Assembly (NCBI GenBank): GCA_963843385.1
Contig: CAWJJY010000007.1
Coordinates: 132,244 to 196,243, forward strand
Reading direction: 5' to 3'
Source: an uncultured Acidobacteriota bacterium
GTDB taxonomy: Bacteria; Acidobacteriota; Vicinamibacteria; Vicinamibacterales; JAKQTR01
DNA: 64,000 bases
Shown here: piece by piece, positions 5,250 through 57,299 of the stretch
How positions within the stretch are numbered: position 1 is the stretch's first letter
Layout of the letters: each line of letters opens with the position of its first letter
Made by a program: the position numbers and the translations under genes
Notes under the pieces: model-generated
Seen by the model: the letters and a program-made list of their open reading frames with translations, nothing else
Databases searched by the model: none
What the model was told of the DNA's origin: nothing

Positions 5250-5584
5250 ATCCCAGTCCTGTGCTGGCGTTCGGCGAAAGGTCGCCGGGATTGGTGCGCC
5301 AAAAGCGGAGGGCCTGCGGCGTCAGTGCCTCCTGCGCCAGGCAGAGACACGACTCGTTGGGCGCCGAGATGGCTGCCAAGCGCGTTCAGCACACACAAGT
5401 CCCAATAATAATCATAGCATCAGTTTGGTCGGAGTAAGAACGGACCGCCGAGTACCGCGGGCGGTCCCACTGCCAGGCCTGACCCCACCGGTTCGACCAG
5501 GGGCCAGATTCCTGTGCAGGTGTTGTTGCAGGGCGGGCGGCGGCGCGCGAATATCGGTCGCGTCGCACCAAGGAGAACTTGCAG

Positions 5585-16593: not shown

Positions 16594-16883
16594 CAGATCC
16601 TCCTGTCATCCAGAGTTGCCACGTCGATCGCGAGCCGTGTTCGCCTGACGTCATGACGGGGAATACGGCCGCCTCCCGACGCTCGCCGGAATGGCGAGCC
16701 TCCGGCCCAAGGAGTCGTGTTGGTGGGAGACAACCCTTATAACATAAGTCGGAGTTAATAGTCACGTGCTTCGACAAGGGGATCAGGCAGAGCGCCCGGG
16801 CGCGGACCGTCGCGTCAACTCAATGGCTGAAAGCGCAGACCAACGCACACGCGGCCTCGATCGCGGTTCCGCCCGTGAACCGG

Positions 16884-17107
16884 CGCCAGGCGATGAAGCG
16901 TGCGGCCTGATCCGCCGCGAGGCGAGGAAGCGTGCGGCCGGATCCGCCGCCGGGCGATGTAGCGTGCGGCCTGATCCGCCGCCAGGCGATGAAGCGTGCG
17001 GCCTAATCCCTCGCCAGGCGAGGAAGCGTGCGGCCTAATCCCTCGCCAGGCGAGGAAGCGTGCGGCCTGATCCGCCGCGAGGCGAGGAAGCGTGCGGCCT
17101 GATCCGC
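16884..17107. repeat. Tandem repeat, 7 x 32 bp
   Basis: Consensus CGCCAGGCGA[T/G]GAAGCGTGCGGCCTGATCCGC; units start at 16884, 16916, 16948, 16980, 17012, 17044, 17076; no spacers. Confidence 0.92.
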
Positions 17108-17110
17108 CGG

Positions 17111-17116
17111 TATAAT
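17111..17116 (+). promoter_or_regulatory. -10 box (TATAAT) for the Clp-like ATPase gene
   Basis: TATAAT 3 nt after the array; AAGGAG at 17123-17128; GTG at 17140. Confidence 0.55.
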
Positions 17117-17139
17117 GCAGGCAAGGAGCGAAGAACCAG

Positions 17140-18573
17140 GTGGACACGGGCGCGCGACAGGGCGAATGTCTGCCCGCGCAGGCTGGAAACCTGCTCGAAT
17201 TGCTGGCGCGGAAGGTGGTCGGGCAGCCGGCTGCGCTGCAGCGGATCGTCCCGTATGTCCAGATGTACCAGGCCCACCTCAATCCGCCCGACCGCCCGGC
17301 CGGCATCTTTCTCCTGCTCGGCCCGACCGGCACCGGGAAGACCCGCACCGTCGAGGCGCTGGCGGAAATCATCCACGGCAGTCCGAAGAACCTGCTGAAA
17401 ATCGACTGCGCCGAGTACCAATCCGATCATGAGGTGGCCAAGCTCATCGGCGCGCCTCCCGGCTACATCGGGCATCGCGAGTCGAAGCCCATCCTGACGC
17501 AGGAACGCCTGCTCGCCGCCATCAGCCCGCACTGCGATCTCGCGCTGGTGCTCTTCGACGAAATCGAAAAGGCCGCGCCGGCCTTCACCGCGCTCCTGCT
17601 GGGCATCTTCGACCGGGCCACGCTGCGCCTGGGCGACAACACGCCGGTGAGCTTCGAGAAGACGCTGATCTTTCTCACGAGCAATCTCGGCGCGCGCGAG
17701 ATGGTCAACGCGGTGGGCCACGACATCGGGTTCCGGGGCGCCAGGCGCCGCGAGCCCGAGCAGGTCACCGACCTGTTGCACTCGGTCGGCTTCAATGCCG
17801 TGAAGCGACGATTCTCGCCGGAGTTCGTCAACCGGATCGACGTCGTCATCACCTACGGGACGCTCGGCGCCGAGGCGCTGGGAGAGATCCTCGACCACCA
17901 CATCGCCGAGTTGCAGGAGCACGTGCACACCCGGCTCGGAAAGCGGTCCTTCGACGTGGCGGTCAGCCCGGCGGCCCGCCAGTTCCTGCTCGGCCACGGG
18001 ACCAGCGACGAATACGGCGCGCGCGAACTGAAGCGCACCGTTCACCGGATGCTGACGCAGCCGCTGGCCGCTCTGGTCGCCGACAGTGCGATCGCGCCGG
18101 GAAGCCTGGTCGACGTCGATGTGGCCGAGGACGGGCGGACGCTCAGCCTGCGTCCGGGCGCTGGTGGGATGCCCATCGAGGAGCCGGAGGCGCCGCGGCC
18201 GGTCGTGCTGGCGGTTGACGAGAACGCCCACCTGCTGATGAGACTCGAGGAATCGCTCGGCCGGGCGGGGGTGGCGGCGCTCGTCGCCACCACCGCGGAG
18301 GAAGCCCGCGAGATCGCGGCGCGGCAGCAGCCCGACCTGGCGATTGTCGATATGGTGCTCGCCGATGGCGAGGGCCTCTCGGTGGCGCTCGAACTGCAGC
18401 GCGCACACCCGCACATGCGAATCGCCGTGACGACCGGAACGGAGTTGTCGTCGGACGAATCGGCGGTGTGCGAACGCCAGGGGTTCTCGGTGCTGCGGAA
18501 GCCGTTCCTGCCCGAGGACGTGGTGACCCTGGTGAAGAGCCTCGGCCTCCGCTGGTCGGCCGCTGCCGGCTAG
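17140..18573 (+). CDS. ClpA/B-type NBD2 AAA+ ATPase fused to a C-terminal receiver domain
   Basis: GPTGTGKT, GAPPGYIG, LFDEIEKA, IGF, FSPEFVNRID, YGARELKR; then REC 'VLAVDE...AIVDMVLADGEG...LRKPF'. Confidence 0.88.
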   Translation: MDTGARQGECLPAQAGNLLELLARKVVGQPAALQRIVPYVQMYQAHLNPPDRPAGIFLLLGPTGTGKTRTVEALAEIIHGSPKNLLKIDCAEYQSDHEVAKLIGAPPGYIGHRESKPILTQERLLAAISPHCDLALVLFDEIEKAAPAFTALLLGIFDRATLRLGDNTPVSFEKTLIFLTSNLGAREMVNAVGHDIGFRGARRREPEQVTDLLHSVGFNAVKRRFSPEFVNRIDVVITYGTLGAEALGEILDHHIAELQEHVHTRLGKRSFDVAVSPAARQFLLGHGTSDEYGARELKRTVHRMLTQPLAALVADSAIAPGSLVDVDVAEDGRTLSLRPGAGGMPIEEPEAPRPVVLAVDENAHLLMRLEESLGRAGVAALVATTAEEAREIAARQQPDLAIVDMVLADGEGLSVALELQRAHPHMRIAVTTGTELSSDESAVCERQGFSVLRKPFLPEDVVTLVKSLGLRWSAAAG

Positions 18574-34128: not shown

Positions 34129-34510
34129 CGGACGCCTCCTCAGAGAATTCACTGACCTTCGGGGGACTAATGCCTCATGCGAATCTGGACATGCGCGAAA
34201 AGGTGGCGTGAAGGGACCCCCTCCGCCACGCTGCCTCGCCAACAGCCCCTCGGGCCCCGGCCGGAGAGAACCCCGGCCACCCGATGCCAGGCGGACCCAC
34301 ATTCGGGGCGGCGTGGCAGTCGAGACGGTGCGCCCCGGCTACAGGCCCGCCAGGCGGGCCCACGGGCGCACACGAGTCCCGCCGGATCCAGTTCCACAGG
34401 GCGCTGCGACCACGTGAGGTCGTCAGTTCGTGCGGGCGATCTGCCGGGACCTTGGAGGACCTTGATTGACGAATGCAGCGTGAGGCTAACACGGAAGGCT
34501 CCGGCCGGAT

Positions 34511-34549
34511 TGTCAAACGATGTCTGTGGAATGTCTCCGAAATGTCTCC
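34511..34549. promoter_or_regulatory. TGTC direct repeats at 10-11 bp period (winged-helix regulator site candidate)
   Basis: TGTC at 34511, 34521, 34532 and 34543 in the divergent TBDR/NHL intergenic region. Confidence 0.4.
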
Positions 34550-34888
34550 CTGCGACGGACACGACCGCCGGGCGGCACCGGCACCATCGTCGCGGAACAG
34601 TCGGGGCCGAAGCGGGAGCTTCGTCCTGTTGGCGTCACGCGAGATCGGGCGCCGCACTTTTTACTTCTTGTTACATGACATCGTCGCTGCGGCGGCGATA
34701 ATCGGCCCGACAGTAGCCAGACAACGAAGCGCGCAGTGTCCGGGGCGGCCCGGGCGCCTGTTGAGTCGGGGCGCCCGAGGCCAGGTGTGCAAGCGTCGCG
34801 TGCGCGTCCACGTCGCAGGGCGCGCCGCGGCGGCCGGCCCCGCCGGTGACCGTCGAATAGTTCGGCCCGAATCTCGAAAGGACTGCCC

Positions 34889-35974
34889 ATGAAGCGTCTC
34901 GCAATCGTCCTGCTCCTTGTCGTCGTGGCCGCCGTGTACGCTCAGCAGGCTCCGCAGTCGGGGCCCCCTGCGCCAACTCCCGAGCAGCAGGCGCGGCTGG
35001 CCAAGCAAGTGGAAGTCGAGAAAACCACGCCGAAGCTCAAAATCAAGGAAGAGGTCCTGCCGCTGGTCGTTCCCGGCCACACGATCGGCGAGGCGACCGG
35101 CGTGGCCAAGGACTCCAAGGGCCACCTCTACATCTTCACGCGCAGCGGCAATGCCGGCCCGGCGCGCGGCGCCACCGCCTCGCAGCTGTTCGAATTCGAT
35201 CAGAACCTCAAGTTCATCAAGCAGTGGGGCGAGGACAATTACGCGGCCTCCTTCGCGCACACGGTCAAGATCGACAAGTACGACAACGTGTGGATGACCG
35301 ACGAGGGGTCGGGCATGATCGTCAAGTTCAATCCGCAGGCGATGGTGACGATGGTGCTCGGCCGGAAGCCGGAAGGCATCGACTACCTCGAGCGCTTCCT
35401 CGAGCGCGGCGAGAAGAACGAGGAACGGCACCCGGTCGGCCGGCCCGGCGTCTTCAACCGCCCGACCGACGTCACCTTCGACACGCAGGACAACGTCTTC
35501 ATCAGCGACGGCTACGGCAATTCGCGGGTGGCGAAGACGACGAAGACGGGCGACTGGGTGAAGGCCGTCGGCACGTGGGGCAGCGGGCCGAACCAGTTCA
35601 ACATCCCGCACGGCATCACCTCGGACGCGAAGGGAAATGTCTACGTGGCGGACCGGGGGAACTGGCGCATCCAGGTGTTCGATCCGGAACTGAATCCGGT
35701 GAGGATCATCGGCAACGTCCGTGCCCCGTGGTCCGTGTGCGTGACGCCCGGCCCGAAGCAGTATCTGTACAGCGGCGATGGCGGAGGGAACATCTACAAG
35801 ATGGACCTCGAGGGGAACATCGTCGGCTGGACCGAATCGGGCCTGCACCACGGCCAGTCCGGCTGCCTGGTTCACGAGCTGTACTGCGAATCGGAGAACG
35901 TGGTCTACAAGGGTGACTGCTCGACCTGGCAGGTCTACAAGATGACCTTCGGCGGCACGGCGGCTGCGAAGTAG
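34889..35974 (+). CDS. Secreted PAL-like NHL-repeat protein
   Basis: AAAGGA RBS; FAHTVKID, SDGYGNSRV, PHGIT, ADRGNWRIQ, VHELYC; close paralog of 488-1579. Confidence 0.87.
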   Translation: MKRLAIVLLLVVVAAVYAQQAPQSGPPAPTPEQQARLAKQVEVEKTTPKLKIKEEVLPLVVPGHTIGEATGVAKDSKGHLYIFTRSGNAGPARGATASQLFEFDQNLKFIKQWGEDNYAASFAHTVKIDKYDNVWMTDEGSGMIVKFNPQAMVTMVLGRKPEGIDYLERFLERGEKNEERHPVGRPGVFNRPTDVTFDTQDNVFISDGYGNSRVAKTTKTGDWVKAVGTWGSGPNQFNIPHGITSDAKGNVYVADRGNWRIQVFDPELNPVRIIGNVRAPWSVCVTPGPKQYLYSGDGGGNIYKMDLEGNIVGWTESGLHHGQSGCLVHELYCESENVVYKGDCSTWQVYKMTFGGTAAAK

Positions 35975-35995
35975 GCGGCGATCGATCTCCTACCG

Positions 35996-36040
35996 GGGGC
36001 GCTCGGCTGCGCTTGCAGCGTTGAGCGCCCCTACTTTTTC
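35996..36040 (+). terminator. Intrinsic terminator-like hairpin
   Basis: GGGGCGCTC...GAGCGCCCC stem followed by TACTTTTT, between convergent genes. Confidence 0.55.
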
Positions 36041-36462
36041 GGCGAGGCGAGGCGCCAGACCACCAATGCCGTCAGCACGCCGACGAGCGCGAGGACCTGT
36101 CGTTCAGTTCCCGGATCGAACGGGTCCGAGGCGACCTTGAGCACGAGCCGCATCCGCGTCCATCCGCCTTTCGCGTAGAGATCTTCGTACATCCTCGTCT
36201 GGAGATCGTGGGCGTTGACGGCTTCGAGGTCGTCCTCCTGGCCCACCGGGAGCGGGCCCGGCAGGACGGGCAGCGCGTTTCCCGGATCGACCGCCCGATT
36301 CACCAGCTTGAGGGCGAGACTCCTGTCGCCCTGGGGCGGCCAGGCCGCGACGATGAACAGCGCGACCGCGACCAGTCCCCACCATTGACCATTGCTTGGG
36401 TGCCACACGCTTCTGGAACCTCCAGGTCGGACGGCACCTATCGTAACGCCGAAACGATCCAC
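36031..36462 (-). CDS. Hypothetical membrane protein
   Basis: Two hydrophobic segments around a soluble loop; start uncertain. Confidence 0.55.
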   Translation of the reverse strand: MDRFGVTIGAVRPGGSRSVWHPSNGQWWGLVAVALFIVAAWPPQGDRSLALKLVNRAVDPGNALPVLPGPLPVGQEDDLEAVNAHDLQTRMYEDLYAKGGWTRMRLVLKVASDPFDPGTERQVLALVGVLTALVVWRLASPKK

Positions 36463-36628
36463 CTCGTCGTGCCGCTCAGGAACGATGCGTCACGGAAACC
36501 CGGGAAAGGCGTGAGGCGGATGGCCGGCGTCGCGCCGCGTGCCCCTCTGCCGGCATCGGGGCACTGGTATATAGAGCAAACGGCTCGGAGATCTCCAACG
36601 CCCCGATTGACGCCTGGCCGAACAGACC

Positions 36629-36657
36629 TTGACATCGCCCGCGGCGGCGGATAAGGT
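36629..36657 (+). promoter_or_regulatory. Sigma70-type promoter of the signalling operon
   Basis: TTGACA-17 bp-TAAGGT. Confidence 0.6.
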
Positions 36658-36663
36658 CGGCTC

Positions 36664-38452
36664 ATCTCACAACATCTTTGGCGCCCCCGTCGGCCTGGTC
36701 CGGTCGCGTATGTCATCGTGGCGCTGCTTGGCGCCGCCATACTCGTGCTGTACCTGGACAGCCAGTCGGTGGCATCGCACGAACATCAGAACAATCTGCT
36801 GCGCCACGAAATCTTCGATCACGTGGCGTCCAATGTCGTGGACGAGATCGACAGCACGTTCGAGGGGCCCGTTTTCGACACGCTGGCCGCCGTCAATCAC
36901 CCTGTCCTGAAAGCGGGCCGGATGGACGTGGTCGCCGGGACCTTCAGCGAGGGGCTGCGAAAATACCCCCAGGTGCAGAGTTTCTTCGTCTGGAACTCGC
37001 TGACCGAATCGCTCCGCCCTGGCGAGGCGCTGTTCTTCGACCGCCGTTCGGCGTCGATCCCGGTTCCGGCTCCGCCGACCGGGCGGGCACCCTCCGCGCT
37101 GAACTCGCGGGTGCTCACGCAGACCCTGGCCGCCTTTCATCGCGATCCGGCGCTGGCAGCCCTCATCAGGGAGGGCGCGGCGCGCCATGCGAGTTCGCAG
37201 CAGATCTACTTCGCGATGGAACGACCGGTCAACGGGACCTACTGCGACATCTTCGCCCGGCTGTTCTGGGTCGATGCGAACCGCAAGCAGTACTTTGCGA
37301 TTCTCGGCTTCGTCGTCGATCTGAAGGAAGTGCACACGACGCTGTTCCCCGAGCTCTACGGCAAGCGGCTCGCCGCGCTGCTTCGCCGCCAGAACGAGCT
37401 GCCCGGCCTCGAGCTGCGCGTGCTCGACGAGGCGGACCGCGTGGTGTTCGGCCCGCCCCTGCCCCTTCCCCCGTTTGCGGGTGAGGCCCGTTTCGCACTC
37501 CAGTTCTACCCGGCCGAAGCCATACGCACGCGGACCTCCACGGGCATCACGGAGCGGACCTGGCGCGTCACGATCAGCCAGCAGCGGGAACACGCGAAGC
37601 ATGCCGGATGGATGCGGCCTCCGCGCTTCCTGCTCTCGGGCCTCTCGGTGGTGCTGATGCTGGTCGCGCTGGCGTTCGTGGTGGTGGGGAACAGGCGGGC
37701 GGGGCAGCTGTCCCGGATGCAGTCGGACTTCGTGTCCCACGTGTCCCATCAGCTCAAGACGCCGCTGTCGGTGTTGAGCGCGGTGTGCGAAACGCTCGGC
37801 CTCGACCGCGCGCACTCGCCACAGAAGCTGAACGAGTACGTCGGGATCGTCCGGCTGGAAACCGACCGGCTGAAGACGCTGGTCGAACGCATCCTCGAAT
37901 TCTCGCGCGCCGACGGGGGCGGCCGCCGGTACGAGTTCGGGCCGGTCGACCTGGTGTCGCTCGTCCGGGAAACGGTCGACGCCTTCTCGCGGCCGCTGGG
38001 CGAGGACGCCGAGGTCCGCGTCGAAGAGACAGGCGGCCGTCCGATCGTGTCCGCCGACGAGGCCGCGCTCGAACAGGTGCTGGCCAACCTCCTCGACAAC
38101 GCGCTCAAGTACTCCGACACGCCGAAGAGGGTCGTGGTCCGCGTCGGGAGCGCGGGCGCCGACGCCACCATTGCCGTGATCGATCACGGCATCGGGATCG
38201 ACGCCCGGGACCGGCGCCGCGTCTTCGAGAAGTTCTACCGCGGGCAGGGCGCCGCGTATTCGCGCAACGGCTTCGGCCTCGGACTGGCGATCGTCAGCCA
38301 GCTCGTCAGGGCCCATCAGGGGACGGTCGAGGTCTCCAGCACCCCCGGCGCTGGCAGTACGTTCACCGTCAGGCTTCCCAGGCTGTCGGAGAGTGCCCGG
38401 GAGAGGAGCCTGGCAACGGCGCCAGCACGCCGGCGTCGAGAGGCTGGCGTGA
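36664..38452 (+). CDS. Membrane sensor histidine kinase (HisKA/HATPase_c); reads through into the regulator as sequenced
   Basis: Two TMs; H-box VSHQLKTPL, NLLDNALKY, DHGIGI, FEKFYR, GFGLGL. A GTGA junction at 38449-38452 suggests a separate gene. Start at ATC36664 or GTG36718. Confidence 0.85.
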
Positions 38453-39159
38453 AGCCCAACGGGGACCTCACCGACGCGCTGCCTCGGATCCTCATCATCG
38501 AGGACGAGCCGGGGATGCGCGTCCTGCTCGCCGACAACCTCGGCTTCGAGGGCTACCAGGTGAGCGCGGTCGCTTCCGCCGAAGAAGGCCTGGCGGAGCT
38601 GCAGGCGCGAATGCCGGCAGTCGTCATTCTCGACGTCAATCTGCCGCGCATGAGCGGATTCGAATTCTGCCGGCAGGTCCGCGCGCGAGGCATCTGGGTC
38701 CCCATCATCATGCTGACCGCGCGCAGCGAGGAATCCGATCGCGTGGTCGGGCTGGATCTCGGCGCCGACGACTACGTGACCAAGCCGTTTCAGGTACGGG
38801 AACTGCTCGCCCGGGTCCGCGCCCAGCTGCGGCGAGGCACCCACGACGCCAGCCCGGCGGGGACGTTCGTGTTCGGCGACGTCACCGTCAACCTGCGGCG
38901 GCGCCTGGTGACCCGACACGGACGGCGCGTGGATCTCTCGGCCCGGGAGTTCGAGCTGCTTCGGTATCTCATTGCGCACCGCGGCGAGGTCGTCGAGCGC
39001 GAGCAGCTGCTGCAGGAAGTGTGGGGGTACAACGGCCTGGTCGTGACGCGGACGGTCGACAACTTCGTCGCCAAGCTGCGGACGCAGCTGGAGCGCAAGC
39101 CTCACGAACCCCGCCACATCATCACCGTGCATGGCAAGGGCTACCAGCTCCTGGTCTGA
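38449..39159 (+). CDS. OmpR/PhoB-family response regulator
   Basis: GAGAGG RBS then GTG; ILIIEDE, ILDVNLP, MLTAR, DDYVTKPF; wHTH 'RTVDNFVAKLR...TVHGKGY'. Confidence 0.9.
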   Translation: MKPNGDLTDALPRILIIEDEPGMRVLLADNLGFEGYQVSAVASAEEGLAELQARMPAVVILDVNLPRMSGFEFCRQVRARGIWVPIIMLTARSEESDRVVGLDLGADDYVTKPFQVRELLARVRAQLRRGTHDASPAGTFVFGDVTVNLRRRLVTRHGRRVDLSAREFELLRYLIAHRGEVVEREQLLQEVWGYNGLVVTRTVDNFVAKLRTQLERKPHEPRHIITVHGKGYQLLV

Positions 39160-39192
39160 AAGAGCCCCCCGCGCGGAACCAGACGCCACCCG

Positions 39193-41589
39193 ATGCACAA
39201 GAGCCCCTACCCATCCGTCGAGATCCCGTCGATCTCCCTTCCGAGCTTTGTCCTCGATGGGGCAGACGACCGCCGCCACAAGACCGCCATCGTGGATGGC
39301 CTGTCCGGGCGCCTGCTCACCTACGGCGACGTGCTGGATGCCTCGGTGCAGACCGCTGCAGGCTTCGCCGCACGGGGGCTCTCCAAGGGCGACGTCGTGG
39401 CGATCCACAGTCCCAACACACCCGAGTACCCGGTCGCGGTGTACGGAGCCGTGCTGGCGGGCGGTGTGGTCACGACGATCAACGCGCTCCTCACGCCGAT
39501 CGACGTGGCGCACCAGCTGAAGGATTCTGGCGCGAAGATCCTGATCACCTCCGGAGAAACGCTCCCCACCGCCAGGACCGCGGCACGAACAGCCGGGGTG
39601 TCCGACCTTTACGTGTTCGGTGCCGAGGAGGGCGAAACGCCTTTCAGCGCGCTGCGGCAGCCCGGAGGCAGCGTTCCGAACATCACCGTCGATCCCCGCG
39701 AAGATGTCGCAGCGGTCCTGTACTCGAGCGCGACGACCGGCCTGTCCAAAGGCGTGATGCTCACGCACTACAACCTGGTCGCGAACATCCTGCAGACGGT
39801 GCCCCTCCGGCAGATGGACGGACGGGAAGTCGTGGTCGCGGTGCTGCCCTTTCATCACGTCTATGGGTTCAACACGGTGATGAACATGACGCTGCACGCC
39901 GGCGCGACGCTCGTCACCCTGCCGCGCTTCGAGCTGGAGGGCTTCCTGGACGTGCTGGAGCGCTACGCCGTGACGACGGCGTACCTCGTGCCGCCGATCG
40001 TGCGCGCGCTCGCAAGGCACCCGCTGGTCGGCCGCTACGACCTTTCGAAGCTCCGCCGCGTGGTGTCCGGCGCCGCGCCGATGCCGGAGAGCACCGCGAG
40101 AGCGTTTACGGATCGTATCGGTTGCGTTGTCGAGCAGGCGTACGGACTGACCGAGACCAGTCCGGTCACGCATTTCAGCCCGCCGGGTCACGTGAAGCCG
40201 GCTTCTGTCGGCGTCGCGATTCCCAACACGGAGTTTCGCGTGGTCGACGTCGCCACCCAGCAGGACGTTCCGTCGGGTGAACTGGGAGAGGTGTGGGTGC
40301 GGGGTCCCCAGGTCATGAAGGGGTACCTGAACAACCCTGAGATCACGTGCCGGATCATCGACGCCGAGGGCTGGCTCCACACCGGTGACATCGGGTACGC
40401 CGATCGAGACGGGTATCTGTACGTCCTGGACCGCGCGAAGGACCTCGTCAAGTTCAAGGGCCTCCAGTATCGCGACGATGAGTTGTTGCTGCAGATGGTG
40501 GAGGATCTGACCACCCGTCGTCGAGACGAGGAACGGTTGAGGTTCCAGGCCCTGCTGCTCGACAGCGTCACGGAATCCGTGGTCGGCGTCGGCACCGACC
40601 ACCGGGTCAGTTTCTGGAACAGGGGCGCGACGGAGCTGTTCGGTTATACCAGCGAAGAAGCCCTCGGCACGCCCGTGGCGTCGCTGATCATCCTCGATGC
40701 ACCGGGCGCGCGCCGGCAGTGGCAGGATGAGTTGAGCCAGGTGGCAGACCGCGGCCGGTGGCAGGGACAGGTGCGGCGGCGCCGGAAGGACGGCTCAGCC
40801 ATCTGGACGGATCTGGTCGTGTCGGTCGTGAAGACACCCGAGGGCCAGGTCTCCGGCATGATCGCGATTCATCGCGACATTACCGAACTGCGGACCAACC
40901 AGGAGATGCTGCGCGACTCGCACAGCCGGCTGCAGGACTTGACCAAGCGCCTCATGGACGTTCGCGAGCAGGAGCGCACCGCGATCGCGCGCGAGCTGCA
41001 CGACGAGCTCGGCCAGGCGCTGACTCGCCTGACGATGGACCTGACGTGGTTGACCGAACGGGTGCCGAAGCGGTTTCAGACCAGGAGGGTGGCATCCATG
41101 CTGCCGCTGGTCGACGGCATGCTGACGACGGTACAGCACCTGTCATCGCAGCTTCGGCCCGCGATTCTCGACGATCTGGGCCTCGAAGCGGCGATCGAGT
41201 GGCAGGCGCAGGAGTTCGAGCGGTGGAACCCGTGCCGCTGTATGCTGGACCTGCAGGTGGGCGCGCTGACGCCGGATCGGGATCGGGACACCGCGGTCTT
41301 CCGGATCCTGCAGGAATCCCTCACGAACGCGGCGCGGCACGCCAGGGCCACGACCATTCGGATTCGCGGCGCGCTCGATGCCGGTCAGCTCGTGCTCGAG
41401 ATCGAGGACGACGGCGTCGGTATCCCGACCAGCGAGATCAGGAGCCCTCACTCGCTGGGCCTGCTCGGCATGCGCGAGCGGGCACGCGGCATCGGGGGCG
41501 TCATTGAAATCGGGCGAAGCGCAGGACACGGAACGGCCATCAGCCTGCACGTGCCGCTCGCTTCCGTCCCTGTGAACAAACGACGATGA
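39193..41589 (+). CDS. 4-coumarate-CoA-ligase-like AMP-binding domain fused to a PAS and HisKA_3/HATPase histidine kinase
   Basis: YSSATTGLSKG, LPFHHVYG, QAYGLTE, GWLHTGD, DRAKDLVKFKG; then PAS ('WNRGATELFGY...RRKDG...RDIT'), ARELHDELGQ, QESLTNAARHA, DDGVG, GLLGMRERA. Confidence 0.88.
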   Translation: MHKSPYPSVEIPSISLPSFVLDGADDRRHKTAIVDGLSGRLLTYGDVLDASVQTAAGFAARGLSKGDVVAIHSPNTPEYPVAVYGAVLAGGVVTTINALLTPIDVAHQLKDSGAKILITSGETLPTARTAARTAGVSDLYVFGAEEGETPFSALRQPGGSVPNITVDPREDVAAVLYSSATTGLSKGVMLTHYNLVANILQTVPLRQMDGREVVVAVLPFHHVYGFNTVMNMTLHAGATLVTLPRFELEGFLDVLERYAVTTAYLVPPIVRALARHPLVGRYDLSKLRRVVSGAAPMPESTARAFTDRIGCVVEQAYGLTETSPVTHFSPPGHVKPASVGVAIPNTEFRVVDVATQQDVPSGELGEVWVRGPQVMKGYLNNPEITCRIIDAEGWLHTGDIGYADRDGYLYVLDRAKDLVKFKGLQYRDDELLLQMVEDLTTRRRDEERLRFQALLLDSVTESVVGVGTDHRVSFWNRGATELFGYTSEEALGTPVASLIILDAPGARRQWQDELSQVADRGRWQGQVRRRRKDGSAIWTDLVVSVVKTPEGQVSGMIAIHRDITELRTNQEMLRDSHSRLQDLTKRLMDVREQERTAIARELHDELGQALTRLTMDLTWLTERVPKRFQTRRVASMLPLVDGMLTTVQHLSSQLRPAILDDLGLEAAIEWQAQEFERWNPCRCMLDLQVGALTPDRDRDTAVFRILQESLTNAARHARATTIRIRGALDAGQLVLEIEDDGVGIPTSEIRSPHSLGLLGMRERARGIGGVIEIGRSAGHGTAISLHVPLASVPVNKRR

Positions 41590-42369
41590 TTCACCTCCTC
41601 CTCGCGGATGATCACCCCGTTGTGCGGGAAGGCCTCAAGTTCGTCGTGTCGCAGAGCCGCGACATCCAGGTCGTGGGAGAAGCCGAGGACGGAGACGGCA
41701 TCCTGGAGATGTGCCAGCGAACCGAGGCCGACGTGCTGTTGCTGGACGTCTCGATGCCGGGCCCCGGGGTCCTCGAGCTCATCCGCAGCCTCCGGACGAT
41801 CCGGCCAAAGCTGCGGATCCTCGTCTTGAGCGTTCATCCCGAGCAGCACTACGCGCGGCGCGTCCTCAAGGCAGGGGCCGACGGGTACCTCACGAAGAAT
41901 CAATCGTCGACGGCGCTCGCCGCGGCGATTCGGCAGGTCCACAGCGGTCGCAAGTATGTCAGTCCCTCGCTTGCCGAGGAGCTGGCGCTCGACCTCTCGG
42001 TTGGACGAACGAATTCAGCCCACGAAGGGCTGTCCAATCGCGAGTACAAGGGTACTCCTGCAGCTGGGCGCCGGCAGGCGGGTCGATGAGGTGGCGCGGC
42101 GGTTGCGGCTCAGCCCGAAGACCGTGCGGACCTACCGGTCGAGGATTCTCGAGAAGATGAGCTTCAAGAGCACCGCCGAGCTCATCTTCTACGCGGTCAG
42201 CCATGGGTTGGTTACCGAAATGGCCGCGGCGCAGGAACTCAACACGGGCCGCTCCAGTGAGTCGTCCGCGGACGCTCCGGCCCGGTCGAGCACCGGGATC
42301 GCCGCGCCCAAGCCCAAGAGCGTTTCGGTTCGACCCCGTACGCACGCAGCCCCTGAAAAGCGCCGGTAG
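41586..42369 (+). CDS. NarL/FixJ-family response regulator (frameshift near 42051)
   Basis: ATGA overlap with the kinase; ADDHPVVREG, LLDVSMP, GYLTK. Removing one G of GGG at 42050-42052 restores 'LSNREYKVL...LSPKTVRTYRSRILEK'. Confidence 0.9.
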
Positions 42370-42724
42370 TCACGCCGAGCCTCGTCCTGCCGCTCGCAAA
42401 TGACTCCCTGGGAAAATGACCGGTGAAACGACGGCCAGACAGGGGTAGTCCAAATGCCTACATCGCTCGCTGGGATCGGAGTTGCCCGTGGATGCCGGCT
42501 GGACGGTCGTACCCGGAGAGAGCCTGACCTCCATCTCCCGCACCCGCGTCATAGCCCGCGGTTGACCGGTGTTTTGACCGCGCTCGTCTTCTGCTGCGAC
42601 TCGCCCTCGCCGGTCTGACAAGCCATTTCCCGCCGCGGGCCACTCAGTTGAGGTCGCGACCCAGCCCCGGCTTGTGGTGCGCCCTCTCCCGTTCCTGCCG
42701 ATCCTGGTGTCGTTGTTCTGTCCA

Positions 42725-42752
42725 TTGACAGCCGCGCTGAGAAAACGATAAT
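42725..42752 (+). promoter_or_regulatory. Putative sigma70 promoter
   Basis: TTGACA-16 bp-GATAAT, about 240 bp upstream of ATG42990. Confidence 0.45.
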
Positions 42753-42989
42753 CGGCCGAACGCGACAATCCCGGGCGGAATGGCTGATGCAGGCTCCTGG
42801 TGCCGGAGACCGCGTCCGAGCACCGGCAACTTCGCCCGCGAGAGCCTGTCTGTCTGGTCTGCTCTTCGGATCGGTGAGCGCGTCGAACACGCTCCCACCA
42901 GGACGTCCGAACGGACCGGCCCTTTCCGTGCCGCGCTTGGGGAAACACTCCAGTCAGCGGCTTGCAGCGAACAGGACGAGGAGGATGAC

Positions 42990-44240
42990 ATGCACGATGA
43001 CGACACGACAGAGCCTATCGAACGCCCCCACAGGGAAAGAGTCGGCCGGCGCCAGTTCGTCCAAACCGTCGGGGTCGCCGGCGCGCTGAGCGCGATTGCC
43101 GGTGCCAAGGGAGGAAGGTTGTTCGCCGCGGAAGGGCCCGCCGAACCGGCCCCGGCGTCACCGCGCCAGACCGCGAAGCCGCGGGCCGCGGGCCCGGCAG
43201 ACTTCCCGAAACCCGCCAAGCTCCTCACGGGATCGCAGCTGGACTCCCGATTCCCCGTGAGTTTCGCGCCCACGCTCTCAGAGGGATTCAGACTGGTGAC
43301 GGACTACTTCACAGCCCTGAGCCAGCGCGATCTCGAGGGGATCGCGAAGACACTTCATTTCCCGTTTGCGATCTATGAGGACATCGAGCCGATCGTGATC
43401 AATTCGGCAGCGGACCTGATCTCGAATCCGCCGCCAACGCTCAACTGGATCGGGAAGGGCAAGTCGCGCGTCATGCCGGGGTCCTACGATCTGATCGAAA
43501 GCGTCAACGTCCACCTCTATTGCCCCATCGGTGGCGCGTTCTCGATGTCGTTCAACCGGTATACGCCCGACGGCCGCCTGCTGCTGGCCTGCGACGGCAT
43601 CTACTCGGTCACCAACAACGACGGCCGGTGGGCGATTCAGCTCGCCTCCACCATCTTCCACGAAGCCGAATTCCTGAATGTCACCTATCCTGACGCGGAA
43701 GAGGCGGCCACCCGGGCCGAGCAGAACTACCTGGCCGCGTTCGGATACGGCAATGAAACGATTCTCAATGACCTCAAGTCGGGCCGGGGCACGTACGAGC
43801 GGCCATTGCCGCCCGGGACGAAGACTGCCAGCGTCAATTTCGGATATGGCCCGCGTGAGCGCGCGAGGGACGCGAGGGAAAATCAGCCGATGGCCGGGTG
43901 GCGCGCGAAGGGCGTCAAGAGCCGCCTGAGTGTGTCGGTGCGCACCGAGGAGAGTCTCAACCGCGAGTACAAGACGAATCTCCCCGAATTCGTGGAATGG
44001 GCCGGCGGCGCGGTGGGCAAGTACGGCTACACCCGGGACCGTCCCATTCGGCCGATCACGATTCACGCGACGCACGACAAGGCACACCTGATCAGCGGGT
44101 ACCTCCGCTACACGGCGGATGGCCAGCTGATCACCGAGACTCGGGGCGTCAGCATTCGAATCTACAAGGAAGGACACTGGGGCAGTGCGGGAGGGCTCGG
44201 CCAGGTCACGCACCACGACCGCTCGAGCTCGAAGGTCTGA
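42990..44240 (+). CDS. Tat-exported hypothetical protein with two NTF2-like segments
   Basis: GAGGAGG RBS; twin-Arg 'GRRQFV'; two similar segments 'FNRYTPDGRLL..DGRW' and 'YLRYTADGQLI..EGHW'. Confidence 0.7.
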   Translation: MHDDDTTEPIERPHRERVGRRQFVQTVGVAGALSAIAGAKGGRLFAAEGPAEPAPASPRQTAKPRAAGPADFPKPAKLLTGSQLDSRFPVSFAPTLSEGFRLVTDYFTALSQRDLEGIAKTLHFPFAIYEDIEPIVINSAADLISNPPPTLNWIGKGKSRVMPGSYDLIESVNVHLYCPIGGAFSMSFNRYTPDGRLLLACDGIYSVTNNDGRWAIQLASTIFHEAEFLNVTYPDAEEAATRAEQNYLAAFGYGNETILNDLKSGRGTYERPLPPGTKTASVNFGYGPRERARDARENQPMAGWRAKGVKSRLSVSVRTEESLNREYKTNLPEFVEWAGGAVGKYGYTRDRPIRPITIHATHDKAHLISGYLRYTADGQLITETRGVSIRIYKEGHWGSAGGLGQVTHHDRSSSKV

Positions 44241-44333
44241 CGGCTCCGCGGCCCTCACGCGAAGGCCTGCCCGCGCGTGGGGGCCGCGGCTCGAACGCGG
44301 CGAGCATCGACCGCCGCGATGCCCGCAGCGCGG

Positions 44334-45515
44334 CTACTGCTCTCCCTTCAGCAACAGGCCGGCGATCACCAGGTGCTGAAGGTCGTTGGTCCCTTCGTAG
44401 ATGCGCAGCGCGCGGATCACCCGGTAGAGCCGCTCGACCTCGACGCCACGGACAACGCCCAGGCCGCCGTGAATCTGGACGGCCTGGTCGATGATGCGTT
44501 GAGCCGCCTCGGTGGCGAACAGCTTGGCCTGCGAGCTTTCGAGCGTAATCCGGGTCTTGAGCCCCCGGTCGCGTGTCAGCGCAGCCTTGTACACCAGGAG
44601 CCGCGCCGCCGCGAGCTCGGTCGCCATCGCGGCCAGCTTCAACTGGATGGCCTGGAACTCCGCGATGGCCTTGCCAAAGGCGTGGCGCCGCCTCGCGTAC
44701 GCGATCGCCTCGTCCAGCGCCCGCTGCGCCAGCCCTACCGCGCTTGCGGCCACGGTGGTCCTGAAAAAATCCAGCGTGACCATGGCGATCTTGAAACCGG
44801 CATTCTCATCGCCGATGCGGTTCGAGGCCGGCACGCGACACTCTGTGAACACCGGATTGGCGATCGCGTGCGGCGCCAGCAGATCGAGGCGCGTCCCCGG
44901 GTCGAATCCGGGTGTCCCATTCTCGACGATGAACGCCGAAATCCCCCGGCTGCCAGCCTGTTGATCGGTCCTCGCAAACACACTGTAGATGTCGGCGTCA
45001 GGCGCCATGCTGATGAACGCCTTCCGGCCGTTGAGCACGTAGTGGTCGCCGTCTCGCCGCGCGCTGAGCGCCAGAGACGCGACGTCCGACCCGCCTTCGG
45101 GCTCGGTCAGCGCAAAGGCAGCCACGAGTTCGCCCGCCGCGATGCGCGGCAGGTAACGACGCCGCTGCTCCTCCGATGCCGAGAACGAGATCGGGCCCGA
45201 GCCGAGGCCCTGGATCGTGAAGATCAACTCGGCGTTCGTGCAATACCGTGCGAGCGTTTCGCGGACGAGGCAGCACGACACGAGCGACATCGACGATGGC
45301 GCCTTGAGCCCGGCGCACCGGCCCGTGCCATACGCGCCCGGGACCGTCCAGTCGAGAAGGCCGGCACCCGCGAGACATTTCACGATGGCGCGGCTCGTGG
45401 TGTTCGTCTCGCCGACCTGACGTTCGAGCGCCCCGAGTTCGCCCTGACACAATGACTCGACACGTTGCTGCAACGCGCGCTGATCCTCGGACACGAGTGT
45501 TCGAATGAACTGCAT
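44334..45515 (-). CDS. Acyl-CoA dehydrogenase
   Basis: FALTEPEGGSD, LNGRKAFIS, FGKAIAEFQAIQ, QIHGG, RIYEGT. Confidence 0.93.
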   Translation of the reverse strand: MQFIRTLVSEDQRALQQRVESLCQGELGALERQVGETNTTSRAIVKCLAGAGLLDWTVPGAYGTGRCAGLKAPSSMSLVSCCLVRETLARYCTNAELIFTIQGLGSGPISFSASEEQRRRYLPRIAAGELVAAFALTEPEGGSDVASLALSARRDGDHYVLNGRKAFISMAPDADIYSVFARTDQQAGSRGISAFIVENGTPGFDPGTRLDLLAPHAIANPVFTECRVPASNRIGDENAGFKIAMVTLDFFRTTVAASAVGLAQRALDEAIAYARRRHAFGKAIAEFQAIQLKLAAMATELAAARLLVYKAALTRDRGLKTRITLESSQAKLFATEAAQRIIDQAVQIHGGLGVVRGVEVERLYRVIRALRIYEGTNDLQHLVIAGLLLKGEQ

Positions 45516-45618
45516 GGTGACACCCCGGCAACCATGTCCGGTCCGCCACAGGCAGGCCGCGACACCGCTGCGCCCGGCCGAGCACCGTCTTGTCCTGTCT
45601 AACCGGGAGACAGCGCTG

Positions 45619-45646
45619 ATTATCGCGGCTGCCAGGGCCAAGTCAA
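45619..45646 (-). promoter_or_regulatory. Putative sigma70 promoter for the acyl-CoA dehydrogenase
   Basis: TTGACT-16 bp-GATAAT on the minus strand. Confidence 0.45.
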
Positions 45647-45854
45647 CAGGAAACGGCGCGGAAAAAGGACGAAGATCGCCTTGTAGTCACAACCACCCTG
45701 CCAATGCGGTCCTGAACGCACCGGCATCCTTCCCATTCGGAGACTTGTGATCCGGCGCGTGGATCCATAAGCTCCGCAGGGGTGTTGCCGATGGGCCCGG
45801 GGGCTCGGGCCGCCAGGCACGCCCGCTCCGCGACAACCGTCCACTGAGGCGACC

Positions 45855-46727
45855 TTGAACCTCGTCAACTACGACGTGCGGGATCGTGTTGCGGTGGTCA
45901 CCATCGACAATCCTCCCGTCAATGCGCTCGGCCCTGGTGTGCGAGAGGCCCTCGAGGAAGCCGTGCGCCGTGCCACCGAGGATGCCGCCATCGACGCCAT
46001 CGTCGTGAACGGGGCCGGCCGCACGTTCGTCGCGGGCGCAGATATCAACGTGTTCAGGACGCTGACGACGCCTGCGCAGTCCGTCCGGCGGTCGGAGGGG
46101 ATCCACGCGTCGCTCACGCGCCTGGAAGACACCGGGAAGCCGCTGGTTGCGGCGATTCACGGTCACGCCCTCGGCGGAGGCCTGGAACTCGCCATGGCCT
46201 GCCACTACAGAATCGCTACGTCCGACGCGAGAGTCGGACAGCCGGAGATTCACCTCGGGATCATTCCTGGGGCAGGAGGCACACAGCGGCTGCCGCGCCT
46301 CTGCGGCGCCAGGCTGGCCCTCGAGCTGTGCACGCAGGGCAAGCCCATGCCAGCACCCCAGGCTCGCGATGCGGGAATCATCGACCTGGTCGTGGCTCAA
46401 GGACTTGTCGAGACGGCCATTGAATGGGCCCGCGCGAAAGCCGCCTCGGGCGAGCGGCGCAAGACGCGCGAGATTGCCGTGCCTCCCGCCGATCGAGCCG
46501 CGGGCCTGCTGACATGTGCCGAGGCGAGGCACGAGTTGACCGCGCCGCCGCAGAAAGCACGCGCGTTGGCCGCAGTGATAGACGCCATCGAGGCGGCGAT
46601 GAACCTGGATTTCGACGCGGGGTCCGCGCGCGAGCGGGAATTGTTCGCAGAGTGCGTCGTGTCGACCGAGTCTCGCGCGCTGATTGAGCAGTTCTTTGCC
46701 GAACGGGAGGCTGCCAGGCGTCGGTGA
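45855..46727 (+). CDS. Enoyl-CoA hydratase/isomerase (resembles the N-terminal half of FadB-type enzymes)
   Basis: NPPVNAL, FVAGADI, ALGGGLELAMACH, GQPEIHLGIIPGAGGTQRLPRL; ends 'FFAEREAARRR'. Confidence 0.88.
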   Translation: MNLVNYDVRDRVAVVTIDNPPVNALGPGVREALEEAVRRATEDAAIDAIVVNGAGRTFVAGADINVFRTLTTPAQSVRRSEGIHASLTRLEDTGKPLVAAIHGHALGGGLELAMACHYRIATSDARVGQPEIHLGIIPGAGGTQRLPRLCGARLALELCTQGKPMPAPQARDAGIIDLVVAQGLVETAIEWARAKAASGERRKTREIAVPPADRAAGLLTCAEARHELTAPPQKARALAAVIDAIEAAMNLDFDAGSARERELFAECVVSTESRALIEQFFAEREAARRR

Positions 46728-46817
46728 CTGGTCTGGTGGGTTGGGTGGCCATTGGTGGCCGGCGTCTCTCCCGCAACAACTGGCCGGAGAAGGTCCGGGC
46801 TTTCAGGGTGACGTGGC

Positions 46818-55790: not shown

Positions 55791-57299
55791 CTACCACACC
55801 CGGGTGCCCCAATCCACGTTCTCGCGGAGAGTCTTCTTCAGGATTTTTCCGCCCGGGTTCCTCGGCAGCAGGTCTCCGGTGATGACGACGTATTGAGGGA
55901 CCTTGTATTCGGCCAGCCGCCCTCTCACGCTGTCGAGAAGCTCGTCCACCTTCACCTGGCGGCCTGGCTTGAGGACGACCAGTGCCGCGACCCGTTCGCC
56001 CATCATGTCGTCCTTCACGCCCATCACCGCCGCCTCGAACACGGCCGGATGTGCGGAGAGCACGCCCTCGACCTCGACGCAGTACACGTGTTCGCCGCCG
56101 CGGTTCACCATGTCCTTCTTGCGGTCGCAGATCTGGACGAATCCTTCCTCGTCAATCCGCGCGAGGTCCCCGGTGTGCAGCCAGCCGTCGACGAAGGTCG
56201 CCGCAGTGGCTTCCGGTTTGTTCCAGTAGCCCTTGACGACATTGGGCCCGCGAACGAGCAGTTCGCCGACGCCGCCATTCGACGACGGGGGTTCCAGCTT
56301 CAGGTCGACGACCGGCGCGGAAAAGCCCACGGTCTCCGGCCGCACGCGCGCATAGTCGTGGGGCAGATACGTCGCCATTGCCGATGTCTCTGTCAGGCCG
56401 AAGCCATTGCCGACGCGCGCCCTGGGAAATGCCTCGAGGATTCGCTGGACCAGGTCCGGAGCAATCGGCGCTCCTCCGTAGGCGAGAGAGCGGATGCTCG
56501 ACGTGTCGAACTCGCGGAAGTTGGACTGGTTGATGGCAAGCCAGTAGATCGACGGCACGGCCAGCACCACGTTGATCCGTTCCGCCTCGATCGCGTTCAG
56601 GAACGCCTGAATCTGGAAGGCGGGCATGATCACGGTCGTACCCCTGGCCTCGCACGTCGGCAGCAGGAGACTGTTGCAGCCGGTGACATGGAACAGCGGC
56701 ACCGAGACAAGGGTGCGAGCGGTCCCGTCGAACGGCAGCAGGCCGATTCGCCGGCACGTCTCGATGTTTGAGAGGAATCCCTGGTGCGAGAGCATAGCGC
56801 CTTTGGGGAATCCTGTCGTTCCGCTCGTATAGAAGATCGCCGCGACATCCTCTTGCCCGAGATCCTCCTCGGCCATCCCGGCCCGGTCCGGCAGCGGTGC
56901 ATCAGGGTGGAACACGAACGCGCTGCCCGAGTCACCGACGACGTACTCGGCCTCGGCGTCGGTGAACCGCGTGTTCACCGGCACTGCGATGGCGCCGGCC
57001 ATCTGGGTGCCAAAGAACGCCAGGCACCAGTTGAGCCCGTTGCGAAGGCGGATCGCCACGCGGTCGCCGCGGGTGATTCCGCCCGCCCGCAGCCCGCCGG
57101 CCACGCGGCTCGCGCGATCCCACAGCTGTCGATACGTGACCCGCTGGCCATCCAGCTCGACGATCGCCTCGACATCCGGCGCCTCCTCGACCGTGCGGCG
57201 CAGCATCTCGACGAGCGACGAGGGTCGATGCTGATATCGCGCGATCCCGTCCGCGCCGCGCACGATCCCCGACTCATCAAACGGGTGGATTCGCCGCAT
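55791..57299 (-). CDS. Acyl-CoA synthetase (class I adenylate-forming, complete)
   Basis: YTSGTTGFPKG, GFGLTE, GWLHTGD, DRKKDMVNRGG, A10 'PRNPGGKILK'. Confidence 0.92.
   Translation of the reverse strand: MRRIHPFDESGIVRGADGIARYQHRPSSLVEMLRRTVEEAPDVEAIVELDGQRVTYRQLWDRASRVAGGLRAGGITRGDRVAIRLRNGLNWCLAFFGTQMAGAIAVPVNTRFTDAEAEYVVGDSGSAFVFHPDAPLPDRAGMAEEDLGQEDVAAIFYTSGTTGFPKGAMLSHQGFLSNIETCRRIGLLPFDGTARTLVSVPLFHVTGCNSLLLPTCEARGTTVIMPAFQIQAFLNAIEAERINVVLAVPSIYWLAINQSNFREFDTSSIRSLAYGGAPIAPDLVQRILEAFPRARVGNGFGLTETSAMATYLPHDYARVRPETVGFSAPVVDLKLEPPSSNGGVGELLVRGPNVVKGYWNKPEATAATFVDGWLHTGDLARIDEEGFVQICDRKKDMVNRGGEHVYCVEVEGVLSAHPAVFEAAVMGVKDDMMGERVAALVVLKPGRQVKVDELLDSVRGRLAEYKVPQYVVITGDLLPRNPGGKILKKTLRENVDWGTRVW

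Follow-up and report, generated by a model that had tools for sequence, protein, structure and literature searches.

What does an acyl-CoA ligase domain do at the front of a histidine kinase? This question is raised by a gene in a 64,000-nucleotide stretch of DNA from an uncultured Acidobacteriota bacterium (GCA_963843385.1, contig CAWJJY010000007.1, positions 132,244–196,243, forward strand), which we call the window and to which the coordinates below refer unless another locus is named. A first-pass annotation of this DNA had read one 798-residue open reading frame (ORF) as an ANL-PAS-HisKA_3-HATPase_c protein, and both the ORF list and Pfam bore out that reading. As we discuss below, the ANL-PAS-kinase fusion is a genuine, conserved, and uncharacterized input-domain type for two-component kinases. 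Judged from its sequence, the protein is probably a sensor in the cytoplasm that binds, without turning over, a carboxylic acid and/or an adenine nucleotide and would signal to the adjacent NarL-type regulator.

Domain architecture of the fused kinase

The gene and its parts are as follows, with the basis for each assignment given last.

39193..41589, + strand: whole gene, soluble sensor histidine kinase ANL-PAS-HisKA_3-HATPase_c, 798 residues, ATG start (ORF list, Pfam, 119 same-architecture homologs)
39193..40428, + strand: ANL large N-terminal domain, similar to 4-coumarate:CoA ligase (4CL) and FadD, residues 1–412, motifs A1–A7 (Pfam, PDB 3A9U, conserved columns)
39721..39756, + strand: A3 phosphate loop (P-loop), residues 177–188, YSSATTGLSKGV, canonical form SSGTTGxPKG, with G180 changed to Ala and P185 to Ser (alignments)
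40429..40473, + strand: A8 hinge and β-hairpin, residues 413–427, with D413, ribose-binding R414, K420, and Q425 (conservation, mapping to R432/K438/Q443 of Pt4CL1)
40474..40566, + strand: linker of fixed length, residues 428–458, beginning as the first helix of the lost subdomain and ending as the PAS N-cap (4CL homology to residue 432)
40567..40893, + strand: PAS domain, residues 459–567, with terminal HRDITE (Pfam PAS_9/PAS/PAS_3/PAS_4)
40894..41172, + strand: post-PAS helix and HisKA_3 dimerization/phosphoacceptor (DHp) domain, residues 568–660, with H603 at 40999–41001 (Pfam, invariant H603)
41173..41586, + strand: HATPase_c catalytic (CA) domain, residues 661–798 (Pfam 700–790; N712, D739, G741, G743, and G756 invariant)

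In the 798-residue protein, Pfam matched AMP-binding at residues 25–379 (E 6.7e-92), PAS at 454–567, HisKA_3 at 594–657, and HATPase_c at 700–790, but found neither AMP-binding_C (PF13193) nor any input domain beyond ANL and PAS. No NCBIfam ligase model reached its cutoff for this protein (best score 296 bits vs 476). The closest solved structure for the ANL part was poplar 4CL (Pt4CL1 from Populus tomentosa, 3A9U/3NI2; E 6.9e-92), which aligned with query residues 3–432. In agreement with the earlier description of a near-complete 4CL-like domain ending just past A8, this alignment extends beyond the A8 motif DRAKDLVKFKG into the first helix of the C-terminal subdomain and thus places the fusion point inside that helix. 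The missing part can be seen, as the annotation had pointed out, in a complete ligase at 55791–57299 of the window, where AMP-binding_C occupies residues 409–485. The most hydrophobic 19-residue segment of the fused kinase (Kyte-Doolittle mean 1.73, residues 81–99) aligns with the buried A2 core of soluble ligases and therefore indicates no membrane helix, as had also been claimed.

The fusion is conserved and under selection

We searched 5.8 billion proteins for homologs, scored 8000 candidates, and listed the best 120, to which all 120-member counts refer. These comprised the window protein and 119 others, which were 42–71% identical to it, 549–981 residues long, and drawn from JGI, ENA, NCBI, and Logan assemblies. 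PF00501, PF07730, and PF02518 were listed for all 120 members and PAS also for 118; PF13193 was listed for none. When hmmscan was repeated on 55 members picked to cover the subgroups described below, AMP-binding, HisKA_3, and HATPase_c were found in 55/55, PAS in 53/55, and AMP-binding_C in 0/55. The source annotation of the fused proteins was solely "PAS domain S-box-containing protein". The first-pass annotation had staked its reading on the existence of homologs with this architecture and on the ANL part not being in decay, and the reading survived on both counts.

Selection on the fused kinase was estimated from the ratio of nonsynonymous to synonymous changes (dN/dS, Nei-Gojobori) for one close pair of family loci, L001 and L192 (81% identical). 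The values were 0.29 for the ANL domain, 0.35 for the hairpin and linker, 0.23 for PAS, 0.18 for DHp, and 0.09 for CA. By this sequence measure, the ANL part is under purifying selection, with constraint looser than in the kinase core.

These results bear directly on the possibility that the locus is an artifact: an assembly chimera, a ligase gene and a kinase gene joined by an indel, or a decaying pseudogene. Two single-base anomalies nearby, a frameshift at 42050–42052 and a probable indel that fuses an upstream kinase to its regulator (both described below), would fit such an origin. However, the same architecture occurs in four other genomes and in 119 other clusters from JGI, ENA, NCBI, and Logan assemblies, so the fusion is not an assembly chimera; a frame-shifted C-terminal subdomain has no room, because the gap between A8 and PAS is just 42 residues; and selection is purifying. 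We therefore rejected all three forms of artifact, whose probability we regard as negligible.

Reads and contigs added smaller pieces. Public reads matched in two soil DNA runs of one study, with small shares of 0.09 and 0.07, and no RNA run was listed. Contigs derived from these reads were 135–230 nucleotides long; two with 0–1 differences span 40319–40469 and 40486–40636, none bridges 40469–40486, and none spans the regulator frameshift site at 42050 or the probable indel upstream. In a scan of metagenome contigs with the junction/PAS alignment, the true members among the matches listed were L111 and L112 (~2 kb each). A search of a representative library with the junction region was dominated by multi-PAS proteins, and no family size was obtainable from it. 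Of the PLSDB plasmid records, 849 matched the ligase part and none covered at least 80% of the fused protein.

The junction region was present in 4 of 401 sampled genomes of the same class (G000, G045, G320, and G261; four genera, three families), and in a phylum sample solely in the window's own genome (1 of 401 at E ≤ 1e-30). L001 and L002, from named Thermoanaerobaculia metagenome-assembled genomes, also carry the fused kinase. It was absent from both congeners examined, and the 12.8 kb at 34000–46800, which hold both two-component systems and the first acyl-CoA genes, had no DNA counterpart in these two; this segment is an accessory region. A tally of 157 of 401 genomes includes one, G384, flagged as unpublished, and no conclusion here depends on it. 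No close sister ligase of full length occurs in the window's genome, in which the most similar ANL protein besides the query itself is 34–36% identical.

Residues kept and lost in the ANL domain

For comparison, the 120 fused proteins were aligned with complete sister ligases. Of 78 genome loci whose match was confined to residues 1–431 to 1–439, 33 supplied these ligases. The 33 were hand-picked, and cyanobacterial forms of ~1025 residues were omitted; the window's own ligase joined one set of motif counts but is excluded from the 33/33 figures. The sister ligases (~515–530 residues; Acidobacteriota, Chloroflexota, Actinomycetota, and others) are 47–57% identical to the query over its residues 1–431 and, unlike it, have a full C-terminal subdomain and SSGTTGxPKG in 33/33. 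They are also invariant (33/33) at H222, TGD, and the A8 lysines. Loosening of the catalytic motifs was seen only in the fused proteins.

The fused proteins fell into three subgroups according to the P-loop. An intact subgroup (35/120) retains the canonical loop together with the whole N-domain motif set. An altered subgroup (54/120), which includes the query, carries A or S in place of G180, L in place of P176, and, in about half, N in place of K416. A remodeled subgroup (31/120) has the loop N-[AV]-x-[ST]-D-V-P-M-G with H222Q and G398C, and these new residues are 77–97% conserved. The query loop itself, SSATTGLSKG, departs from the canonical A3 pattern (T/S)SG(T/S)TGxPKG, as the first-pass annotation had noted along with the absence of the A10-bearing subdomain. 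The fused protein is, judged by sequence, a member of the HisKA_3 kinases. It is not a bona fide ANL enzyme, because neither this subdomain nor the canonical P-loop was found.

Much of the remaining domain is nevertheless kept. The A5 TE, A7 TGD, and A8 DRxK motifs are all present in the query. Of 140 columns with at least 90% conservation among the sister ligases, it retains 118. Equivalents of H234, Y236, G331, P337, V338, the TGD Asp, R432, K438, and Q443 of Pt4CL1 are also present. Differences from Pt4CL1 comprise the missing C-terminal subdomain with K523 (A10), which has no query equivalent, the Gly-to-Ala change in the P-loop, replacement of K303, S240, and G306 by V, T, and A, and fusion to PAS and a kinase. 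Across the 120 members, E321 is found in 117, D399 in 118, and R414 in 119. In ANL enzymes, the ribose hydroxyls are bound by the A7 Asp and A8 Arg, and adenylation depends above all on the A10 Lys (PMC8388817, in excerpt). In Pt4CL1, the catalytic residues are K438, Q443, and K523, and the pocket residues are Y236, G306, G331, P337, and V338 (PMC8430942, in excerpt). The latter correspond to Y224, A294, G318, P324, and V325 of the query, so that four of five are the same; position 325 is variable in the family. The sister ligases and all three fused subgroups conserve Y224 and G318. A294 and P324 are shared by the sister ligases and two fused subgroups, and the remodeled subgroup has T294 and A324 in their place (30/31 each).

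Would such a domain still carry out chemistry? A catalysis-coupled sensor or bifunctional protein would either adenylate slowly or use a basic linker residue in place of the A10 lysine, and formation of tightly bound acyl-AMP would switch the kinase. The 35 members with canonical SSGTTGxPKG, H222, TGD, and A8 residues speak for this proposal, as do K186, T181/T182, E321, D399, R414, and the Pt4CL1 K438/Q443 equivalents (K420, Q425) in the query and the linker arginines R442, R443, and R448, which are conserved in 100–106 of 120 members. Against it, the C-terminal subdomain with the A10 lysine is missing in all 55 members scanned, the P-loop sequence has diverged on at least two occasions in the family, and G180A falls on the P-loop glycine equivalent to one in 4-chlorobenzoate:CoA ligase, the first of its loop, whose mutation lowered activity 1000-fold (PMC8388817, Table 2, in excerpt). 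Weighing these points, we consider coupled catalysis unlikely and infer from the sequences that chemistry has probably been lost. The earlier label "catalytically dead" was thus supported in part, by the absent A10 subdomain and by G180A in the query, but does not extend securely to the 35 members with full N-domain motifs.

A second alternative concerns what remains to be bound. If the domain were an energy-charge sensor, it would read only ATP/AMP and no organic acid, and the strictest conservation does lie at the nucleotide and ribose contacts E321, D399, and R414. However, acyl-pocket residues Y224 and G318 are conserved throughout, and A294/P324 are swapped for T294/A324 in the remodeled subgroup. 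Such subgroup-specific acyl-pocket residues suggest a second ligand that differs in identity between subgroups, and we find a pure energy-charge sensor very improbable. Hydroxycinnamate was considered as a ligand and set aside, as the neighbors of the sister ligases do not resemble a hydroxycinnamate pathway.

The genes around the sister ligases (78 loci, L003–L080) often encoded a PLP-dependent decarboxylase of the Orn/Arg/DAP type (20), ATP-grasp (19), SnoaL-like (15), TonB_C (14), DUF2071 (13), and DinB_2 (13) proteins. Cyanobacterial loci L045, L050, L053, and L060 encode the ~1025-residue proteins, whose N-terminal 4CL-like domain is 47–48% identical to the query ANL part.

A junction of fixed length connects the ANL domain to PAS and kinase

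Among 86 sequences, mean pairwise identity was highest in the A8 hairpin (0.69), followed by DHp (0.64), the linker (0.62), CA (0.60), PAS (0.57), and ANL (0.55). PAS cap residue L456 follows R414 at a distance of 42 residues in 118/120 members and of 35 in the remaining 2. H603 follows the PAS HRD motif at a distance of 41 residues in 112/120 members, of 34 in 6, and of 37 in 2, so that most deviations amount to one heptad. A second PAS domain lengthens the members of ~920 residues by roughly 122. The PAS domain terminates in a DIT-type motif, a putative PAS-to-helix coupler, and residues 564–612 show a hydrophobic periodicity of 3.6 residues. A canonical coiled coil is not supported for linker residues 428–458, where 3.5–3.6-residue periodicity is missing.

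PAS may of course be the real sensor, with the ANL remnant having a structural, dimerizing, or partner-docking role and no role in ligand binding. PAS is present in 118/120 members and is common as a cytoplasmic sensor, and pocket-wall position 325 of the ANL domain is variable. Several observations argue against it. P0095 (681 residues) and P0099 (682 residues) lack PAS and retain the ANL part joined to the kinase; in P0095, the helix after the A8 hairpin continues directly as the DHp helix. Hence, the ANL part can couple directly to the kinase helix. Moreover, Y224, G318, D399, and R414 are nearly invariant, and the replacement pocket and P-loop residues of the remodeled subgroup are themselves 90–97% conserved, which argues for a working pocket. 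We regard a purely structural ANL remnant as quite improbable.

Phylogeny of the ANL part

A FastTree phylogeny of the ANL part was built from 115 fused rows (5 rows shorter than 350 residues were dropped) and the 33 sister ligases. A branch with 100% support separated the sister ligases from the fused rows, and the query subgroup formed a clade (98%). The remodeled subgroup nested among rows with intact motifs, indicating that the P-loop changed at least twice in the family. An IQ-TREE analysis took a subset of 34 fused rows, sampled after six long-branch rows had been excluded, together with 18 sister ligases and 5 distant ligases from the genome of the window. The sister clade again received 100% support, but the root fell among the fused rows. 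In an approximately unbiased (AU) test, one clade of all fused rows was not rejected (delta lnL 1.19, p 0.466), and the sequences are compatible with a single fusion event.

Kinase core and partner regulator

H603, N712, D739, G741, G743, and G756 are invariant in the aligned members, and the H-box, N, and G boxes are present. The closest solved kinase core is that of DesK (E 5e-10). The TGA stop of the kinase gene and the ATG of a response-regulator gene overlap as ATGA at 41586–41589. In this assembly, the regulator is split as follows.

41586..42050, + strand: response regulator, receiver (REC) part (Pfam Response_reg; 68% identical to the L001 regulator over 154 residues)
42050..42052, + strand: GGG run with one extra base relative to orthologs, a frameshift between REC and helix-turn-helix (comparison with orthologs)
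42052..42369, + strand: response regulator, GerE/LuxR helix-turn-helix part in the +1 frame (Pfam GerE; 71% identical to the L001 regulator over 59 residues)

The REC-frame ORF runs from 41586 to 42089 and the GerE-frame ORF from 41956 to 42369. Compared with three intact orthologs of 249–260 residues, frame 1 matches up to K155 (42048–42050) and frame 2 from a valine (42052–42054). Because both halves are still 68% and 71% identical and otherwise undamaged, the frameshift appears to be either very recent or a consensus error. The overlap of a NarL-type regulator gene with the kinase stop, claimed in the first-pass annotation, was thus confirmed, but the single intact regulator was not, the annotation having overlooked the frameshift. 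The window's own genome contains three whole NarL-type regulators and one split one, that of the window; four are too few for an assembly indel rate.

Pairing with the regulator is conserved. A REC-GerE regulator lies directly downstream of the fused kinase in L001, G045, G320, and G261, which are all four of the other genomes with readable downstream DNA; the L002 locus is truncated at the end of its contig. This pattern upholds the view of the ANL domain as the N-terminal part of a soluble kinase paired with a NarL-type regulator.

A second anomaly lies 3.6 kb upstream of the regulator frameshift, in an 813-residue ORF at 36718–39159 (HisKA-HATPase-REC-Trans_reg_C). Its closest homologs (77–81% identical) are plain kinases of 575–583 residues, and an alternative frame ends at a TGA inside GTGA at 38449–38452 and resembles the tail of one homolog. 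The ORF thus probably represents a kinase and an OmpR-type regulator fused by a single-base indel near 38410–38452, either an error or a recent mutation. The window's genome consists of 9 contigs totaling 5.6 Mb, from which we infer a long-read assembly. In G261, likewise a few-contig genome, a two-PAS fused kinase (L194, G261:C3, 6848–9597) is broken into three frames.

Neighboring genes

Apart from the regulator, the window shared no neighbors with the loci of other lineages, so the synteny that the first-pass annotation proposed to check holds for the regulator pairing but not for the remaining genes. The kinases of L001, L002, and G045 are 77–84% identical, and their loci share a divergent PRK12582-type acyl-CoA synthetase and a TonB-dependent receptor. 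The synthetase (614–627 residues, minus strand) is encoded at 5550–7433 in L001, 5861–7723 in L002, and 4357–6201 in L192, with the receptor following it; an MFS transporter beside this pair was identified by Pfam in L001 only. In G320, an AraC gene lies upstream, and M28 peptidases, a sodium:solute symporter, an outer-membrane barrel, and an acetyl-CoA-synthetase-like ligase lie downstream. In G261, frames for enoyl-CoA hydratase and acetyl-CoA hydrolase are found 3.5 kb downstream. The window itself contains two acyl-CoA dehydrogenases, an enoyl-CoA hydratase, a 3-hydroxyacyl-CoA dehydrogenase, and a ligase 14 kb away.

Another acyl-CoA ligase or acyl-CoA genes therefore occur within ~14 kb in every lineage examined. 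This recurrence is suggestive of a link to the regulon but is no test of it, because such genes are common in these genomes. The proposal that the system controls adjacent acyl- and benzoyl-CoA genes was not supported in its original form: beyond the regulator no neighbor is shared, and no benzoyl-CoA-specific genes were found in the window. The recurrence of acyl-CoA genes leaves room for a weaker version of it.

A search for regulatory sites gave little in common. An 18-mer in the divergent intergenic region is identical in L001, L002, and L192, but was absent from the window (allowing up to 3 mismatches) and from the other loci, so that no shared operator was found; nor were inverted repeats found at 42360–43000. 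In the 620-nucleotide gap after the regulator, a strong sigma-70-like site at 42725–42752 (TTGACA, 16 nucleotides, GATAAT) has 11/12 matches. Further downstream, GGAGGA and an ATG at 42990 open a 416-residue protein (42990–44240) with a twin-arginine-like signal, RRQFVQ, and without a Pfam or NCBIfam match. Its gene is a possible first target of the regulator.

Elsewhere in the window, two large outer-membrane barrels of the CarboxypepD_reg/TonB type are encoded on the minus strand at 31156–34302 and 52730–55648. The second follows immediately downstream of the complete ligase and shares 28% identity with a barrel near the fused kinase of G320. At 16876–17109, a 32-bp unit is repeated 7.3 times head to tail with 90% matches; this array overlaps the 5' end of a minus-strand ORF (17035..18414) and ends just before a TATAAT-like sequence near 17112.

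Comparison with known systems

No description of an ANL-histidine-kinase fusion was found in the full-text literature searched, which was mostly open access and without supplements, so that a mention elsewhere is possible; the first-pass annotation likewise knew of no characterized example. Four kinds of known protein invite comparison. First, Pt4CL1 and FadD-type ligases share the large N-terminal domain with query residues 3–432, and the sister ligases share pocket residues Y224, A294, G318, and P324 with it. Second, kinases of the DesK/NarX/LiaS type resemble the fused protein in their HisKA_3 H-box, HATPase_c domain, and adjacent REC-GerE regulator. These kinases sense through membrane or periplasmic modules, whereas the input of the fused kinase is soluble and derived from an enzyme. 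Third, FadD1 of Pseudomonas aeruginosa, the receptor of cis-2-decenoic acid, is also an ANL fatty-acid ligase that evolved into a signal receptor; in the excerpted account, however, it is a complete, active ligase that itself binds DNA (PMC12754631), whereas the ligase part of the fused protein is truncated and wired to a phosphorelay. Finally, an Amt-like ammonium sensor fused to a histidine kinase in an anammox bacterium also places a member of a transporter or enzyme family at the input of a kinase, although, as excerpted, its input is a transporter domain in the membrane and is unrelated in both fold and ligand (PMC5764959).

A proposed mechanism

The model that we favor as probable is a binding-only sensor. 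Its input module would be an ANL large domain stripped of the mobile catalytic C-terminal subdomain, and its former acid/nucleotide pocket would most likely bind a ligand without turnover; this ligand might be a carboxylic acid, an adenine nucleotide, or a compound resembling an acyl-adenylate. Two places would sense its presence, namely the ribose site made up of the A7 Asp and A8 Arg, and the A8 segment with its hinge and hairpin. The signal could then pass through the fixed-length linker, once the first helix of the lost subdomain, to the in-line PAS domain and on to the HisKA_3 helix that carries H603. The outcome would be a shift in the balance between kinase and phosphatase activity toward the co-transcribed NarL/LuxR-type regulator. 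In this scheme, ligand binding and the missing turnover, the path and sense of the signal, and the regulon are read from the domains and their conservation and are meant conditionally.

Several results weigh against a binding-only sensor. Every N-domain catalytic motif is kept in 35/120 members, so chemistry may persist in some of them, and the PAS domain itself could be a sensor. The ANL dN/dS of 0.29 exceeds that of the kinase core (0.09–0.18), in the single pair compared. Residues 428–458 of the linker lack the 3.5–3.6-residue hydrophobic periodicity, and, with distant outgroups, the IQ-TREE root falls among the fused rows. Finally, the regulator is frameshifted in this assembly, so the system may be non-functional in this strain.

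A bolder model can be offered tentatively, as a possibility that we would not yet bet on. In ANL enzymes, the lid swings by ~140 degrees about its hinge, and this hinge may have been turned into a signaling lever. Occupancy of the ribose site by a nucleotide or an acyl-adenylate would fix the A8 hairpin and so set the helix that leads to PAS and kinase. On this view, the family would translate ligase specificity into gene expression in a natural, modular way. Its three subgroups might respond to different acids of the cytoplasm, and one would do so with a rebuilt pocket that has no phosphate loop.

The inputs that cytoplasmic histidine kinases respond to are poorly understood, and in the literature searched no ANL ligase body has been described as such an input. 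If the proposed mechanism is correct, a well-studied conformational switch of an enzyme has been reused for signaling. The family would also provide a natural scaffold for carboxylic-acid biosensors, because ANL pockets are among the best-understood and most re-engineerable specificity pockets. For the Acidobacteriota, which are abundant in soil and hard to culture, the fused kinase and its regulator offer a testable metabolite-sensing system.

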